Below are positions 253 to 39,722 of a stretch of DNA of 64,000 nt, piece after piece. This DNA is from Escherichia coli. Its GTDB lineage: Bacteria; Pseudomonadota; Gammaproteobacteria; Enterobacterales; Enterobacteriaceae. A model generated the notes under the pieces. That model worked only from the letters and a program-made list of their open reading frames with translations, was not told where the DNA came from and did not search any database. Every line of letters begins with the position of its first letter. Position 1 is the stretch's first letter. The translations under genes and the position numbers were made by a program. The DNA is taken from the NCBI RefSeq assembly GCF_024502345.1, contig NZ_JALDNN010000001.1; one strand, given 5' to 3'.

Positions 253-2172
253 TCATACCCGGCGCTTAAACTGCCCTGCATCAATGCCATGTTGCTTCAT
301 TTTCCGCCACAGCGTAGTGCGGCCGATTCCAAGTAAAGCCGACATTTCCTGAATGCGACCGCCTGTGACCTGGGCTGCGTTAATAATTGCCTCTTTTTCA
401 ACTTCCGCAAATGACAGACTGGTGGAAAGGCGTGTGGCGCTGACATCATCTGTCGCCTGCTCGGTAAACAGATGTTCCGGCAAATCACTGACGCGAATGC
501 GCCCATTATCACTACTCAGAGCAAGATTCTCGATGACGCTGTAAAGTTCAAAATCGTTGCCAGGCCATGCACAAGAAACCAGGCGAGCGAGGGCATCGTC
601 ATCAATTTTCAGCCGCGTAGAGAAGCGTTTTTCAAGACTGCGTAATTTGTTATTCACCAACGCCGGAATGCTGCCACGCCGCATACGCAGAGGCGGGATG
701 GTAATTTCAAATGCATGCAGCGCGTAATACAGCTGGCGACTAAAACGATTTTGTTCCACCAGCATTGCGAGGTCCGCGGTCGTTGTGGCAATCACTTTGA
801 CATCAATTGGTATTAAACGCCGCGCATCCAGTCGCGTGATAACACCCTGCTTGATAACCTGAAGCAAAGCAGACTGTAACTCCACCGCCAGATGTTCAAT
901 CTTTTCAAGAAACAGCGTGCCACCGTGCGCCAGTTCCAGCCGACTCAGACGGCCATTTTCATTGTCCGTGCGATCGCCGCCAATAAATTCTTCCGCCAGC
1001 GCCGCATCACCATATAACTCACAATTGACGGCGATATAAGGACCTGCAGCACGCTCGCTTTCATTATGAATTGCCTGACTTAGCAGTGCCTTGCCCACGC
1101 CCTCTTCTCCACAGAGCAGGACAGGAAAGCTACTGCGCGCCGCCTGGCGACCAAAATGAATCAAGCGGCGGGTTTGCGGATCGTCCTGTGGCATATGAGC
1201 GAAGGTATGGCTGACTTTTCCTAATTGACTGGTCATTAACTGCCGCATCTGTTCCACAGGATGGAGCAACAAAATAAAGCTGGTTCCCTGCGTTTCTATT
1301 ATCGGTTTAAGGGTTATCACCGCATCAATAAACTGGTGCTGGCTTTCAAAGGTTGCTTCTACGTGTTTGAGCGGATGTGCCTGTTTTATTGCTTGTTGCA
1401 ATACGGCGGGTAACGTTAAGAGTTCAGTGATTGCCCGTCCCTGACTTGCCGTCGCGTCAAGGCGCAAGACCCGCGCCGCCTGGGCATTAATAAATTGCAA
1501 ATTACCCTGCTCGTCCCAGCTAATCACGCCATCATCCATACTTTCTAACAGGGCATTAAGTTGATTTAAATGACGGTTAGTTTCAGCGAGCAAACTGTCC
1601 GTCAGCAGTAAATTACCGACCTCGCGGGCGATTGCCAACGTCAACGGCAAATCAGCTGCGGTAGTTTGCTCAACCGGACACGCCAGCGCTATTGTTCCCG
1701 TCAATCGGCCCTTGCTGTCAAACAACGGCGTTGCACAAAAGGCCCAGTTCCAGAGTGCCTGTTTGAAATGTTGATCGGCCATCGTTTTCACGGCCTGACC
1801 AGAGATAGCCGCTAACGATAGCGCACAAGTACCAATAATTCCCTCGGCGCAATACGTGCCGTCATTGAATCCCAGTGCACTTAGCTGCTGCAAGGTTTGC
1901 GGATCGCCATTACGGCTGAGAATGCAGGCGGTTTCATCGAGAATAAACAGCGCACACTCTCGCGGTGCCATATATTCCCAGGCATCTTCCAGCGCAGCCT
2001 GCCCGAGCGTCAGCATCGCTTTCTTACGCCGATAAATAGAAGCAAATGTCACGCCCTGGGCCTGATGTGGTACGTTCCATGTCTCCCGTTTCATCAGCTT
2101 ATTGCATCGCTCCCAGGAGGTTGCAATTAAGGGAGATATGCCCCGACCATCGTTGTTAAAAGCGCCACTCAT
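253..2172 (-). CDS. dhaR: DhaR, sigma54-independent PAS/AAA+ transcriptional activator of the dihydroxyacetone kinase operon
   Basis: 642-aa ORF in track; AAA+ core and C-terminal HTH; matches remembered DhaR; start trimmed to the internal Met (MSGAFNND) giving 639 aa. Confidence 0.9.
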   Translation of the reverse strand: MSGAFNNDGRGISPLIATSWERCNKLMKRETWNVPHQAQGVTFASIYRRKKAMLTLGQAALEDAWEYMAPRECALFILDETACILSRNGDPQTLQQLSALGFNDGTYCAEGIIGTCALSLAAISGQAVKTMADQHFKQALWNWAFCATPLFDSKGRLTGTIALACPVEQTTAADLPLTLAIAREVGNLLLTDSLLAETNRHLNQLNALLESMDDGVISWDEQGNLQFINAQAARVLRLDATASQGRAITELLTLPAVLQQAIKQAHPLKHVEATFESQHQFIDAVITLKPIIETQGTSFILLLHPVEQMRQLMTSQLGKVSHTFAHMPQDDPQTRRLIHFGRQAARSSFPVLLCGEEGVGKALLSQAIHNESERAAGPYIAVNCELYGDAALAEEFIGGDRTDNENGRLSRLELAHGGTLFLEKIEHLAVELQSALLQVIKQGVITRLDARRLIPIDVKVIATTTADLAMLVEQNRFSRQLYYALHAFEITIPPLRMRRGSIPALVNNKLRSLEKRFSTRLKIDDDALARLVSCAWPGNDFELYSVIENLALSSDNGRIRVSDLPEHLFTEQATDDVSATRLSTSLSFAEVEKEAIINAAQVTGGRIQEMSALLGIGRTTLWRKMKQHGIDAGQFKRRV

Positions 2173-2265
2173 ATCCCGCATCCCTTATGACAAAAGGTGT
2201 TCCGGCTCGCAATTTTAAGTATTAATACACGTAAAAGTTTCAATATGGAACATTCATTAAAGCAT

Positions 2266-2284
2266 ATGTTTCACTATGAAACAT
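2266..2284. promoter_or_regulatory. Perfect inverted repeat ATGTTTCA-cta-TGAAACAT in the dhaR/dhaK divergent intergenic region; candidate DhaR operator
   Basis: 8-bp arms with 3-bp spacer read directly from the sequence, about 115 bp upstream of the dhaK start. Confidence 0.4.
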
Positions 2285-2399
2285 AATTTGGGCTAATTTT
2301 CTTTTCCCTTGCCTGATGCACAATGGATTCATCGGCAGTCAGTGGTCGCCGTGTCGTTGAACATCATCCATGCCCTACCGTAATTGCTGGAGCAAAATA

Positions 2400-3470
2400 A
2401 TGAAAAAATTGATCAATGATGTGCAAGACGTACTGGACGAACAACTGGCAGGACTGGCGAAAGCGCATCCATCGCTGACACTGCATCAGGATCCGGTGTA
2501 TGTCACCCGAGCTGATGCCCCTGTTGCAGGAAAAGTCGCCCTGCTGTCGGGTGGCGGCAGCGGACACGAGCCGATGCACTGTGGTTATATCGGTCAGGGG
2601 ATGCTTTCGGGGGCCTGTCCGGGCGAAATTTTCACCTCACCGACGCCCGATAAAATCTTTGAATGCGCCATGCAAGTTGATGGCGGCGAAGGTGTACTGT
2701 TGATTATCAAAAATTACACCGGCGATATTCTTAACTTCGAAACAGCAACCGAGTTACTGCACGATAGCGGCGTAAAAGTGACCACTGTGGTCATTGATGA
2801 CGACGTTGCAGTAAAAGACAGTCTTTATACCGCCGGGCGGCGCGGCGTTGCCAACACCGTATTAATTGAAAAACTCGTAGGCGCAGCGGCGGAGCGTGGC
2901 GACTCACTGGACGCCTGTGCGGAACTGGGGCGTAAGTTGAATAATCAAGGCCACTCAATAGGTATCGCTCTCGGTGCCTGTACCGTTCCTGCCTCGGGCA
3001 AACCTTCTTTTACCCTGGCGGACAATGAGATGGAGTTTGGCGTCGGCATTCATGGTGAGCCGGGTATTGACCGCCGCCCCTTCTCTTCCCTTGATCAAAC
3101 CGTCGATGAAATGTTCGACACCCTGCTGGAAAATGGCTCATACCATCGCACTTTGCGTTTCTGGGATTATCAACAAGGCAGCTGGCAGGAAGAACCACAA
3201 ACCAAACAACCGCTCCAGTCTGGCGACAGGGTGATTGCACTGGTTAACAATCTTGGCGCAACTCCGCTTTCTGAGCTGTACGGCGTCTATAACCGCCTGA
3301 CCACACGTTGCCAGCAAGCGGGATTGACTATCGAGCGTAATTTAATTGGCGCGTACTGCACCTCACTGGATATGACCGGTTTCTCAATCACCTTACTGAA
3401 AGTTGATGACGAAACGCTGGCACTCTGGGACGCCCCGGTCCACACCCCGGCCCTTAACTGGGGTAAATAA
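2400..3470 (+). CDS. dhaK: Dihydroxyacetone kinase, DHA-binding subunit DhaK
   Basis: Translation MKKLINDVQDVLDEQLAGL... matches remembered DhaK (356 aa); start moved from the track ORF to the internal Met. Confidence 0.95.
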   Translation: MKKLINDVQDVLDEQLAGLAKAHPSLTLHQDPVYVTRADAPVAGKVALLSGGGSGHEPMHCGYIGQGMLSGACPGEIFTSPTPDKIFECAMQVDGGEGVLLIIKNYTGDILNFETATELLHDSGVKVTTVVIDDDVAVKDSLYTAGRRGVANTVLIEKLVGAAAERGDSLDACAELGRKLNNQGHSIGIALGACTVPASGKPSFTLADNEMEFGVGIHGEPGIDRRPFSSLDQTVDEMFDTLLENGSYHRTLRFWDYQQGSWQEEPQTKQPLQSGDRVIALVNNLGATPLSELYGVYNRLTTRCQQAGLTIERNLIGAYCTSLDMTGFSITLLKVDDETLALWDAPVHTPALNWGK

Positions 3471-3480
3471 GGAGAAAGCA

Positions 3481-4113
3481 ATGTCACTGAGCAGAACTCA
3501 AATTGTTAACTGGCTCACTCGTTGTGGCGATATTTTCAACACCGAGAGCGAGTATCTTACCGGACTGGATCGCGAGATTGGCGACGCTGACCACGGGCTA
3601 AATATGAACCGAGGCTTTAGCAAAGTGGTGGAAAAACTCCCTGCTATCGCAGATAAAGATATCGGTTTCATTCTCAAGAATACCGGTATGACGCTGCTTT
3701 CCAGCGTCGGTGGTGCCAGTGGTCCGCTATTCGGTACCTTCTTTATACGCGCCGCACAGGCGACCCAGGCACGGCAAAGCCTGACGCTGGAAGAGCTTTA
3801 TCAGATGTTCCGCGATGGCGCGGACGGCGTAATCAGTCGCGGGAAAGCCGAACCTGGCGATAAAACCATGTGTGATGTGTGGGTGCCGGTGGTGGAATCG
3901 TTACGTCAGTCCAGCGAGCAAAATCTCTCTGTTCCGGCGGCGCTCGAAGCTGCCAGTAGCATCGCCGAATCCGCTGCACAAAGTACGATTACGATGCAAG
4001 CCCGCAAAGGCCGCGCCAGTTATCTCGGTGAACGCAGTATTGGTCACCAGGATCCCGGCGCGACCTCGGTGATGTTTATGATGCAAATGTTGGCGTTAGC
4101 CGCAAAAGAGTAA
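3481..4113 (+). CDS. dhaL: Dihydroxyacetone kinase, ADP-binding subunit DhaL
   Basis: MSLSRTQIVNWLTRCGDIF... 210 aa; GGAG Shine-Dalgarno just upstream (taaggagaaagcaATG). Confidence 0.95.
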   Translation: MSLSRTQIVNWLTRCGDIFNTESEYLTGLDREIGDADHGLNMNRGFSKVVEKLPAIADKDIGFILKNTGMTLLSSVGGASGPLFGTFFIRAAQATQARQSLTLEELYQMFRDGADGVISRGKAEPGDKTMCDVWVPVVESLRQSSEQNLSVPAALEAASSIAESAAQSTITMQARKGRASYLGERSIGHQDPGATSVMFMMQMLALAAKE

Positions 4114-4117
4114 GGAA

Positions 4118-5542
4118 TTGGTGATGGTAAACCTGGTCATAGTTTCACATAGCAGCCGACTGGGAGAAGGTGTCGGTGAATTAGCCCGTCAGATGTTAAT
4201 GAGTGATAATTGTAAAATCGCCATTGCTGCGGGAATTGACGATCCACAAAATCCCATTGGTACCGATGCCGTCAAAGTGATGGAGGCCATCGAATCTGTT
4301 GCCGATGCCGACCATGTGCTGGTCATGATGGATATGGGTAGCGCATTATTGAGTGCTGAAACTGCGCTGGAATTGCTGGCTCCCGAGATCGCCGCAAAAG
4401 TACGTTTGTGTGCTGCGCCGTTGGTCGAAGGTACACTGGCAGCAACGGTCAGCGCGGCCTCGGGTGCGGATATCGACAAAGTTATCTTTGACGCCATGCA
4501 TGCGCTGGAAGCCAAACGTGAACAACTGGGTTTACCGTCCTCCGACACTGAAATCTCTGACTCATGTCCTGCGTACGATGAAGAAGCCCGTTCTCTGGCG
4601 GTGGTCATAAAGAACCGTAACGGCCTGCATGTACGTCCAGCCTCCCGGCTGGTTTATACCTTATCGACATTTAATGCCGATATGTTGCTGGAGAAAAACG
4701 GCAAATGCGTCACACCGGAGAGTATTAACCAGATTGCGTTACTACAAGTTCGCTATAACGATACGCTGCGCCTGATTGCGAAAGGGCCAGAAGCTGAAGA
4801 GGCACTGATCGCTTTCCGTCAGCTGGCTGAAGATAACTTTGGTGAAACGGAGGAAGTTGCTCCACCTACTCTGCGTCCCGTTCCGCCTGTTTCGGGTAAA
4901 GCCTTTTATTATCAACCGGTTTTATGTACGGTACAGGCCAAATCAACCCTGACCGTGGAAGAAGAACAAGAACGATTACGCCAGGCCATTGACTTCACGT
5001 TATTAGATCTGATGACGTTAACAGCGAAAGCAGAAGCCAGCGGGCTTGACGATATTGCCGCAATCTTTTCTGGTCACCATACACTGTTAGATGATCCGGA
5101 ACTGCTGGCGGCGGCAAGCGAACTCCTTCAGCACGAACATTGCACGGCAGAATATGCCTGGCAGCAAGTTCTTAAAGAACTTAGCCAGCAATACCAGCAA
5201 CTGGATGATGAATATCTACAAGCTCGCTATATTGATGTGGACGATCTTCTGCATCGCACCCTGGTCCACCTGACCCAAACGAAAGAAGAACTCCCGCAGT
5301 TTAACTCGCCAACTATTCTACTGGCGGAGAACATTTATCCCTCCGCAGTACTGCAACTGGATCCGGCGGTTGTAAAAGGTATCTGCCTTAGCGCCGGAAG
5401 TCCGGTATCCCACAGCGCCCTGATCGCCCGTGAACTGGGGATTGGCTGGATTTGCCAGCAGGGTGAGAAACTGTATGCGATACAACCAGAAGAAAAGCTA
5501 ACGCTGGACGTTAAAACGCAACGTTTCAACCATCAGAGTTAA
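4118..5542 (+). CDS. dhaM: Dihydroxyacetone kinase phosphotransfer subunit DhaM (EIIA/HPr/EI-like)
   Basis: 474-aa ORF, MVNLVIVSHSSRLGEG...; start could be 4118 or 4124. Confidence 0.9.
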   Translation: MVMVNLVIVSHSSRLGEGVGELARQMLMSDNCKIAIAAGIDDPQNPIGTDAVKVMEAIESVADADHVLVMMDMGSALLSAETALELLAPEIAAKVRLCAAPLVEGTLAATVSAASGADIDKVIFDAMHALEAKREQLGLPSSDTEISDSCPAYDEEARSLAVVIKNRNGLHVRPASRLVYTLSTFNADMLLEKNGKCVTPESINQIALLQVRYNDTLRLIAKGPEAEEALIAFRQLAEDNFGETEEVAPPTLRPVPPVSGKAFYYQPVLCTVQAKSTLTVEEEQERLRQAIDFTLLDLMTLTAKAEASGLDDIAAIFSGHHTLLDDPELLAAASELLQHEHCTAEYAWQQVLKELSQQYQQLDDEYLQARYIDVDDLLHRTLVHLTQTKEELPQFNSPTILLAENIYPSAVLQLDPAVVKGICLSAGSPVSHSALIARELGIGWICQQGEKLYAIQPEEKLTLDVKTQRFNHQS

Positions 5543-25514: not shown

Positions 25515-25547
25515 ACAAAAACCCCTCGTTTGAGGGGTTTGTTTTTT
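25515..25547. terminator. Bidirectional rho-independent terminator between ycgB and fadR
   Basis: Stem ACCCCTC / GAGGGGT with loop gtttg, A-run on one side and T-run on the other. Confidence 0.7.
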
Positions 25548-28042: not shown

Positions 28043-28187
28043 TAACAACTTACCGGGCATATAAATGCCCGGTTTGCCTTTTCGCCCGATAATTGTCCAA
28101 TTGCGTCCTATTTTTGCTGCCTCCTGGTGGCGCAGCGAATGAATTGGTTTAAACTGCGCACTCTATGCATATTGCAGGGAAATGATT

Positions 28188-30490: not shown

Positions 30491-30683
30491 GTCTGTTCTT
30501 GCCAGCAGATCAATACTGATTCAGGCTATCAATATTTGTCGCTGCATAGACTGCTGATTTTTCGTTCTCTTATCCTGTGCTCACGCGGCCTTCTGGCGAC
30601 GACGCTCATCCAGCAGAAATGAAAAATATCACCCGGCTAAAAAATAGAATAGAAGCATTCGCCATAATGACATTAAACATTGT

Positions 30684-34635: not shown

Positions 34636-35154
34636 AGCACATCCTGATAATCCAACCGTACAACACTTATGCTCATTTCATCATCAATCCGTAATCAAAA
34701 CCGCTGACCTGGACGAGTTACGATGACCTGACAGAAGTATCAGACGTCTTCTGCGGTTTCTATGATAGAGCAATTCTGTGGCGGATATTAAGATAACGGG
34801 TATCTGTTCTTTAATGATGCCGCAAAAAATGGAAAGTTAAGAAAGCCTGGCGTGGTGAAAAAATACACTTGCCTCAATACTGGATATTTAAACAGGTCTG
34901 GAGATGCTGTCACGATTAGGGTGCGGAAAAAGGAAGCGTAAATAAGAACAATCAAAAGTACGACGGCAATGGGTTGATTGACAAGGGTATTTTTTAAGCT
35001 ATGAATCAGCGCCATTTATCACTGAATAGACTTTTACTCTGAATAAATGGGAGGGTGACTTGCCTCAATATAATCCAGACTATAACATGCCTTATAGTCT
35101 TCGGAACATCATCGCGCGCTGGCGATGATTAATAGCTAATTGAGTAAGGCCAGG

Positions 35155-36956: not shown

Positions 36957-36982
36957 TCCCGCTGTAAAAGCGCATTTATCTT

Positions 36983-37013
36983 CAAGGCAGAGTTATCTCT
37001 GCCTTGAGTTTTT
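36983..37013 (+). terminator. Rho-independent terminator after minE
   Basis: CAAGGCAGAG-ttat-CTCTGCCTTG followed by a T-run. Confidence 0.7.
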
Positions 37014-38819: not shown

Positions 38820-38870
38820 TATAAAAACAACGGGCGTGCCATACGCCCGTTTCAATACTTAACGCACATG
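38820..38870. repeat. Second copy of the icd-terminator-like ~50-bp element (AACAACGGGCGTG..ATACGCCCGTTT..AATA.TTAAC.CACATGT)
   Basis: Near-identical to the sequence at 39690-39734 immediately 3' of icd, including the GGGCG/CGCCC hairpin. Confidence 0.5.
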
Positions 38871-39632: not shown

Positions 39633-39689
39633 TGGGTTTTATATAAATATGCTCGATATGCTATTAATAATATCCACATAAATAAAACA

Positions 39690-39722
39690 ACGGGCGTGTT
39701 ATACGCCCGTTTAAATATTTAA
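39690..39722. terminator. Bidirectional rho-independent terminator shared by icd and iraM
   Basis: AACGGGCG-tgttatac-CGCCCGTT hairpin with A/T runs on both sides, immediately 3' of the icd stop. Confidence 0.7.

Follow-up and report, generated by a model that had tools for sequence, protein, structure and literature searches.

Paired inverted repeats as putative DhaR boxes between dhaR and dhaKLM of Escherichia coli and in related dha loci

Where on the DNA does the regulator DhaR act in the spacer between the dhaR and dhaKLM genes of Escherichia coli, and does a perfect palindrome that stands out in this spacer mark the place? The question was approached in a window of 64,000 nucleotides, by which we mean the whole stretch of DNA that was analysed. 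A sequence-only reading of it had placed the palindrome between divergently oriented dhaR and dhaKLM genes, and this assignment is borne out by profile matches, by the annotation of strain MG1655 and by identity to annotated E. coli genes. The dhaR gene (253-2172, minus strand, RefSeq start) encodes a regulator with GAF-PAS, AAA+ and HTH_8 domains, and the corresponding program-made open reading frame (253-2181, minus strand) scores 1018 bits against the DhaR equivalog NF008485 of NCBIfam. On the plus strand, three downstream reading frames match DhaK, DhaL and DhaM in a profile search, and together with the converted MG1655 annotation these matches place dhaKLM at 2400-5542 (dhaK 2400-3470, dhaL 3481-4113, dhaM 4124-5542). 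The region is 99.9% identical to the annotated dhaR/dhaK of other E. coli genomes, and K-12 MG1655, whose coordinate equals 1,253,238 minus the window coordinate, is identical over the aligned 185 bases (2168-2352). The program-made frames begin somewhat upstream of the annotated starts, that of dhaK at an ATG at 2370 as against 2400 and that of dhaR at 2181 as against 2172; all distances given below are computed from the annotated starts (dhaK 2400, dhaR 2172).

The spacer that holds the palindrome is 227 bp long (2173-2399, as delimited by the RefSeq gene starts). An exact 8-3-8 inverted repeat had been claimed at 2266-2284, and the bases there do read ATGTTTCA-CTA-TGAAACAT. The pairing runs one base further on each side, and repeat finding in the window accordingly returns a perfect 9-3-9 inverted repeat, TATGTTTCA-cta-TGAAACATA, at 2265-2285 (MG1655 1,250,953-1,250,973; no strand). 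This element is referred to below as box 2, the dhaK-proximal candidate DhaR box. Its conserved core, GTTTCActaTGAAAC, occupies 2268-2282 and is centred on 2275, at a distance of 125 bp from the dhaK ATG and 103 bp from the dhaR ATG, upstream of both. The dyad symmetry of the palindrome suits a dimeric Fis-type HTH_8 DNA-binding domain, and such a domain is present in DhaR (PF02954). Genome-wide, a single palindrome with arms of nine bases is unremarkable, since the window contains eight perfect palindromes whose arms measure 9 or more and whose spacers measure 0-6, where chance alone would give about two (2.0 +/- 1.8 per 64 kb in first-order Markov shuffles of the window, which served as the null model). 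For the 227-bp spacer, the expected number is about 0.007 by our own arithmetic. A second copy of the sequence 31 bp away, together with its conservation across species, is a stronger argument than the palindrome alone.

The second copy, box 1, is a candidate DhaR box on the dhaK-distal, dhaR-proximal side (2235-2253, no strand), where the imperfect repeat AAGTTTCA-ata-TGGAACAT is found (full sequence AAGTTTCAataTGGAACAT). Its core, GTTTCAataTGGAAC, lies at 2237-2251 with the centre at 2244, 72 bp from the dhaR start codon. Box 1 has two mismatches to the 8-3-8 pattern and none to GTTYCA-N3-TGRAAC, the form of the core shared with other species. When ATGTTTCA-N3-TGAAACAT is searched for with up to three mismatches, box 2 and box 1 are the only two matches in the 64-kb window, and the repeat finder also pairs the two boxes as mutually complementary arms. 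They are spaced 31 bp from centre to centre, and because this corresponds to approximately three helical turns, both boxes, and the dimers on them, would face the same side of the helix. A tandem pair on one helix face, upstream of a promoter with a weak -35 element, is the best reading of the operator.

The same core recurs at the dha promoters of other bacteria. The comparison covered dhaR loci from one genome per species, of which L001-L027 are Enterobacterales with a DhaR 52-93% identical to the query. With at most one mismatch, GTTYCA-N3-TGRAAC has 72 matches in 28 Enterobacterales dhaR loci (231 kb), a raw count that overstates the number of independent observations because many of the enterobacterial sites are homologous; the shuffled control gave between 0 and 5 matches (mean about 1.3 over 20 shuffles), and the enrichment is thus about 50-fold. 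Nearly all of the 72 matches are located in dha intergenic regions, at the dhaK, gldA/dhaD and dhaB promoters, and most of them are paired. The distance between adjacent matches is 31 bp in 22 cases, 32 bp in five and 33 bp in one, so that 27 of the 28 pairs closer than 40 bp are spaced by 31-32 bp. Conservation across species extends over the inner 6-3-6 only, with variable outer AT/TAT positions and a centre that favours T-W-A. Since the pattern itself served to select these sites, a position-frequency matrix built from them is circular at the core positions. An unbiased hexamer count over 17 dha promoter regions (8.6 kb) has GTTTCA (48 occurrences) and GTTCCA (38) as the top hexamers other than poly-A, and the commonest exact 6-N-6 palindrome in these regions is GTTCCA-3-TGGAAC.

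Whenever a locus encodes a DhaR orthologue, its dha promoters contain the core; this holds for two phyla and four gene arrangements. As in the window, dhaR and dhaKLM are divergent in Escherichia, C. amalonaticus and Citrobacter sp. R56. In Raoultella, Klebsiella, Yersinia artesiana, Shimwellia, Pluralibacter, Cedecea, Mangrovibacter and Pantoea, dhaMLK is transcribed away from gldA-dhaR, and in the Citrobacter freundii group an ATP-type dhaK is transcribed away from dhaD-dhaR, which is followed by propanediol genes. Finally, dhaR and gldA-dhaKLM converge in Serratia and some Yersinia. The 22-kb Serratia locus L077 contains just two perfect cores, both upstream of gldA-dhaKLM at a spacing of 32 bp, and none upstream of dhaR. 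As judged from these arrangements, the motif tracks the regulated promoters and not simply dhaR.

An extra box pair is present in the C. freundii group in the orfY/dhaT-dhaB spacer (7633-7678 in L004, and at the same place in L005, L006 and L022), which predicts direct control of the glycerol dehydratase genes by DhaR. In Klebsiella pneumoniae, expression studies have DhaR regulating dhaT and dhaB (PMC5890353). The dhaB promoter of the C. freundii group also shows a T-tract and a TAAAGT hexamer that face dhaB and are spaced as in the dhaK promoters. Outside the Enterobacterales, three Chloroflexota MAGs, in which DhaR is 31-35% identical and dhaK lies downstream, have perfect cores directly after dhaR, and in two of these (L030 and L031) a near-consensus sigma-70 promoter, TTGACA-16-TATAAT, lies 17 nt beyond the proximal core. 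In these two Anaerolineae MAGs (L030 4922-5052, L031 4943-5075; DhaR about 31% identical), the boxes of the pair are 33 bp apart. The Anaerolineae box pair suggests that the regulatory module as a whole is either deeply conserved or has been transferred horizontally.

Within the species, 3,924 of 5,385 E. coli records match a 65-bp segment spanning both boxes at 100% identity. Three E. coli variants were examined, and their changes leave the core arms untouched, affecting either the 3-bp spacer or the DNA that separates the two boxes. The divergent Escherichia reference L001 differs in box 2 only at the outermost arm position and in the spacer, its core arms remaining within the consensus, and box 2 is likewise kept in Citrobacter and other enterics. 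Another perfect palindrome, GTATTAATAC, is located between box 1 and dhaR at 2219-2228; it reads GTATTAAAAC in strain N96 and TTATCCAGAC in the divergent Escherichia reference. Being unconserved even within Escherichia, it is probably not a further operator. For box 2, the comparison lends strong support to the earlier suggestion of a DhaR operator through the core shared among dha promoters and its excess over shuffled sequence, and the palindrome is very probably the dhaK-proximal member of two adjacent putative DhaR sites that precede dhaKLM.

The position of the boxes relative to the dhaK promoter appears to follow a common plan. When the dhaK/gldA promoters are aligned with the centre of the proximal box as the anchor, a -10-like nAnAAT is found at +44 to +49 from that centre in all enteric promoters examined. 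In the window this is CACAAT (2319-2324, plus strand), the putative -10 element of the DhaR-dependent dhaK promoter. The longer GCACAAT is invariant in the Escherichia/Citrobacter alignment, and the counterparts are CAGAAT, GAGAAT, AAGAAT or CAAAAT in other enterics and TATAGT in Serratia. At the Citrobacter dhaB promoter, TAAAGT is located one base nearer to the box, and the Chloroflexota have TATAAT at +47 to +52. The expected position of the -35 element is occupied by a conserved T-rich tract, AATTTTCTTTT (2296-2306, plus strand), which lies at about +21 to +32 from the box centre and keeps its position across the anchored promoters; no TTGACA-like -35 is found at this tract. A recognisable -10 combined with a missing -35 would be the profile of an activator-dependent sigma-70 promoter, and such a profile, without a usable -35, explains why a sigma-70 consensus scan of 2100-2450 returned no site at threshold. 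With this -10, the dhaK transcript would start near 2331, which would place box 2 near -56 and box 1 near -87. The classical position of a class I activator is -61.5, from which the centre of box 2 near -56 differs.

Two other promoter assignments for dhaK were considered. The candidate TTGAAC-16-CGTAAT (PMC3946193) was not adopted, as it would yield a near-leaderless transcript and the Shine-Dalgarno sequence would be cut. A sigma-54 promoter was rejected, as no TGGCAC-N5-TTGCW is found downstream of the boxes, the TGCAC...TTCA stretch at 2317-2331 lacks the GG/GC pair, and DhaR lacks the GAFTGA loop. Where K-12 has TGCAC, the equivalents of 2317-2331 in L001, L013 and L027 show GGCAC, similar to the -24 element of a sigma-54 promoter; by eye, none of them has the -12 GC, GT being present instead. 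The GGCAC in these relatives could be coincidental or a remnant of a sigma-54 promoter. Two blocks in the presumed dhaK 5' leader are also kept across enteric genera, namely ATCG(G/C)C (2331-2337), just past the -10, and CCCTAC (2372-2377), about 25 bp ahead of the dhaK start codon.

The features of the DhaR protein are in line with published accounts. The GAFTGA loop was not found in the 639-residue protein, in which the equivalent stretch reads EEFIGGDRTDNENGR, and DhaR has been described as a regulator that has no GAFTGA, controls a sigma-70 and not a sigma-54 promoter, and is activated by DhaL and repressed by DhaK (PMC10084136). Activation of sigma-70 transcription by DhaR in E. coli, with DhaL as co-activator and DhaK as co-repressor, is covered by several reports (PMC10084136, PMC5890353, PMC12821955). 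In the helix-turn-helix motif, RTTLWRK is invariant and IGRTTLWRKMK nearly so in 17 of 17 enterobacterial orthologues in the alignment, among them those of the Serratia group at 54% identity, and the Chloroflexota DhaR relatives retain RTTLWR.

In the mechanism that we propose, each GTTYCA-N3-TGRAAC box would be bound by one DhaR dimer via the C-terminal Fis-type helix-turn-helix, and two dimers would thereby come to lie side by side on one face of the DNA, just upstream of a sigma-70 promoter with the -10 CACAAT and no -35. In the presence of dihydroxyacetone, DhaL-ADP on the sensing domain of DhaR would cause the DNA-bound regulator to activate dhaKLM transcription, whereas binding of DhaK would hold it inactive. 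The same boxes would cover or adjoin the dhaR promoter and so lead to autorepression, for which they could account because dhaR and dhaKLM are divergent in E. coli. We infer here that DhaR contacts these particular bases, where transcription starts and how autorepression works.

That the palindrome is instead bound by another factor, with YgfI/DhfA, YneJ/PtrR, NtrC, CRP and Mlc as candidates, and that DhaR binds elsewhere, is very unlikely. ChIP-exo peaks have been reported upstream of dhaK for the LysR-type regulators YgfI/DhfA and YneJ/PtrR (PMC9068703), and an NtrC genomic-SELEX peak falls within the dhaK/dhaR spacer at about window position 2305 after coordinate conversion (PMC8743547). 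The resolution of ChIP-exo and SELEX is compatible with contact of YgfI, YneJ or NtrC with the palindrome, and any LysR-type T-N11-A box fits trivially inside it. However, the YgfI site predicted by the authors, GATGCACAAtGGATTC, is located at 2315-2330, 30 bp downstream of the palindrome and with no overlap with 2265-2285, and for YneJ the authors report no motif match at dhaK (PMC9068703). The geometry of CRP sites also differs, since the palindrome is of the form TGTTT-N7-AAACA (5-7-5, with an odd centre) and a CRP site is TGTGA-N6-TCACA (5-6-5). Finally, the motif follows the dhaR/dha genes into Serratia, to the Citrobacter propanediol genes and into the Chloroflexota, a distribution that neither an enteric-specific LysR factor nor NtrC would explain. 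The predicted YgfI/DhfA motif (PMC9068703 Table S1) overlaps the -10-like CACAAT, and it may itself be a promoter element because only its GCACAAT part is kept in Citrobacter. The occurrence of ChIP-exo peaks for two unrelated LysR-type factors, YgfI and YneJ, at the dhaK promoter raises the question whether the peak is a recurrent or non-specific one.

With DhaR retained as the putative ligand of both boxes, their role on the dhaR side comes into consideration. Autorepression of dhaR is reportedly a result of Bächler 2005. A hexamer TAAAAT (2212-2217, minus strand), whose nAAAAT-like form is retained in a four-species alignment, is a low-confidence candidate for the dhaR -10; if it served as such, box 1 would be centred at about -39, over the -35 region, an arrangement that might fit autorepression. 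Another dhaR promoter candidate, TTGCGA-17-CATAAG (2212-2184, minus strand; PMC3946193), was not adopted, as a near-leaderless transcript would result. The short distance of box 1 from the dhaR start codon, its overlap with the -35 region of one candidate dhaR promoter and the autorepression reportedly found in Bächler 2005 would all agree with boxes that serve chiefly as an autorepression operator, the activation of dhaKLM being left to another element. Such a division of roles is nevertheless highly improbable: the boxes of Serratia and of the Chloroflexota MAGs do not precede dhaR but the catabolic operon, and they keep a constant distance to the -10 of that operon; the Citrobacter dhaB promoter, with the same geometry from box to -10, also argues against a function limited to autorepression.

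It is scarcely credible that the inverted repeat acts through structure, as a hairpin in the 5' leader RNA, a terminator or attenuator, or a DNA cruciform. Folded as single-stranded DNA, it does form a 9-bp hairpin of -6.5 kcal/mol (z = -4.0 relative to shuffles), but the stem is weak, AT-rich and without a T-run, so that the site is not terminator-like, and an Rfam search of 2100-2450 gave no family match even at E<=1. Among species it is the half-site sequence (GTTYCA / TGRAAC) and not the pairing that is conserved, and at many sites a T stands opposite a G across the dyad, as in GTTTCA...TGGAAC, so that the Watson-Crick symmetry is broken. Both boxes also appear to lie upstream of the dhaK transcription start, as placed from the promoter described above, which argues against a leader hairpin. 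Finally, a functionless chance repeat in AT-rich intergenic DNA, for which one could cite the two or so perfect 9-arm palindromes expected per 64 kb and the unconserved GTATTAATAC nearby, has next to no probability and is effectively refuted by conservation, given the second copy at a helical-phase distance with only two matches in the window, the enrichment at orthologous loci, the unchanged core arms in E. coli variants and the conservation across phyla.

Taken as DhaR sites, the boxes belong to a system that is itself well known: the organism, the genes and the intergenic region are those of the described E. coli DhaR-dhaKLM system, and nothing differs in kind. The palindrome is almost certainly one of two expected operators of a known regulator at a known target, which makes it ordinary biology, much as one would predict. 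A full-text literature search with the 19-mer of the palindrome gave no match, and a keyword search for DhaR found no description of an operator; Bächler 2005, Shi 2014 and the Deutscher 2014 review were outside the reach of both searches. The two-box architecture, the GTTYCA-N3-TGRAAC pattern, the distance of about 44 bp to the putative -10 and the conservation in Serratia, at Citrobacter dhaB and in Chloroflexota are results of the present comparison. It is conceivable, if rather doubtful, that the DhaR operator is hereby defined for the first time at nucleotide resolution, as tandem boxes 31 bp apart, about 44 bp from a -10 with no -35, from Enterobacterales to Chloroflexota.

The arrangement invites comparison with other regulators. 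TyrR has an AAA+ domain without a functional sigma-54 contact loop and a C-terminal Fis-type helix-turn-helix, and its boxes, TGTAAA-N6-TTTACA, often occur as phased pairs at sigma-70 promoters. DhaR is similarly a homologue of enhancer-binding proteins, with putative palindromic, phased boxes upstream of a sigma-70 promoter. In contrast to TyrR, however, the boxes here are of the form TGT-N11-ACA and not TGT-N12-ACA, and the effectors of DhaR are its protein partners DhaK and DhaL, whereas those of TyrR are aromatic amino acids and ATP. DhaR has also been grouped in the TyrR family (PMC8743547). The upstream activating sequences of sigma-54 promoters, for example the NtrC sites of glnAp2, likewise consist of pairs of dyad sites about three turns apart that bind dimers of an AAA+/HTH_8 regulator, but those are located at least 100 bp upstream, whereas the boxes here adjoin the promoter (about -56 and -87); moreover, the E. 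coli promoter is without the -24 GG/-12 GC and DhaR is without GAFTGA. The closest counterpart in other species is the dha regulon of Klebsiella pneumoniae and Citrobacter freundii, which has an orthologous DhaR (about 70-74% identical) and the same box before dhaK, dhaD/gldA and dhaB; in E. coli, by contrast, dhaKLM is the only target beside dhaR, and gldA is elsewhere in the genome.

If the assignment is right, the recognition sequence of DhaR would be pinned to specific bases and to two boxes rather than one. The consensus could be used for predicting DhaR targets, such as the dhaB/dhaT and gldA promoters in producers of 1,3-propanediol, and for engineering promoters that respond to DHA or glycerol. 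The fixed geometry would, if true, also make it testable how an AAA+ homologue without the sigma-54 loop activates sigma-70 RNA polymerase. The overall weight of the finding is small, and it mostly tidies a well-studied regulon.

Elsewhere in the window, perfect palindromes with arms of 9 or more also occur at 25519-25540, 28052-28073, 35077-35100 and 36982-37007, and some of the window's other palindromes of this arm length look terminator-like. Two near-identical perfect hairpins, AACGGGCGTGccataCGCCCGTT and AACGGGCGTGttataCGCCCGTT, are found about 860 bp apart at 38829-38851 and 39689-39711. The sole RNA-family match in the window is the C0299 sRNA at 30511-30589 on the minus strand, a match at the Rfam gathering score with 111.9 bits.
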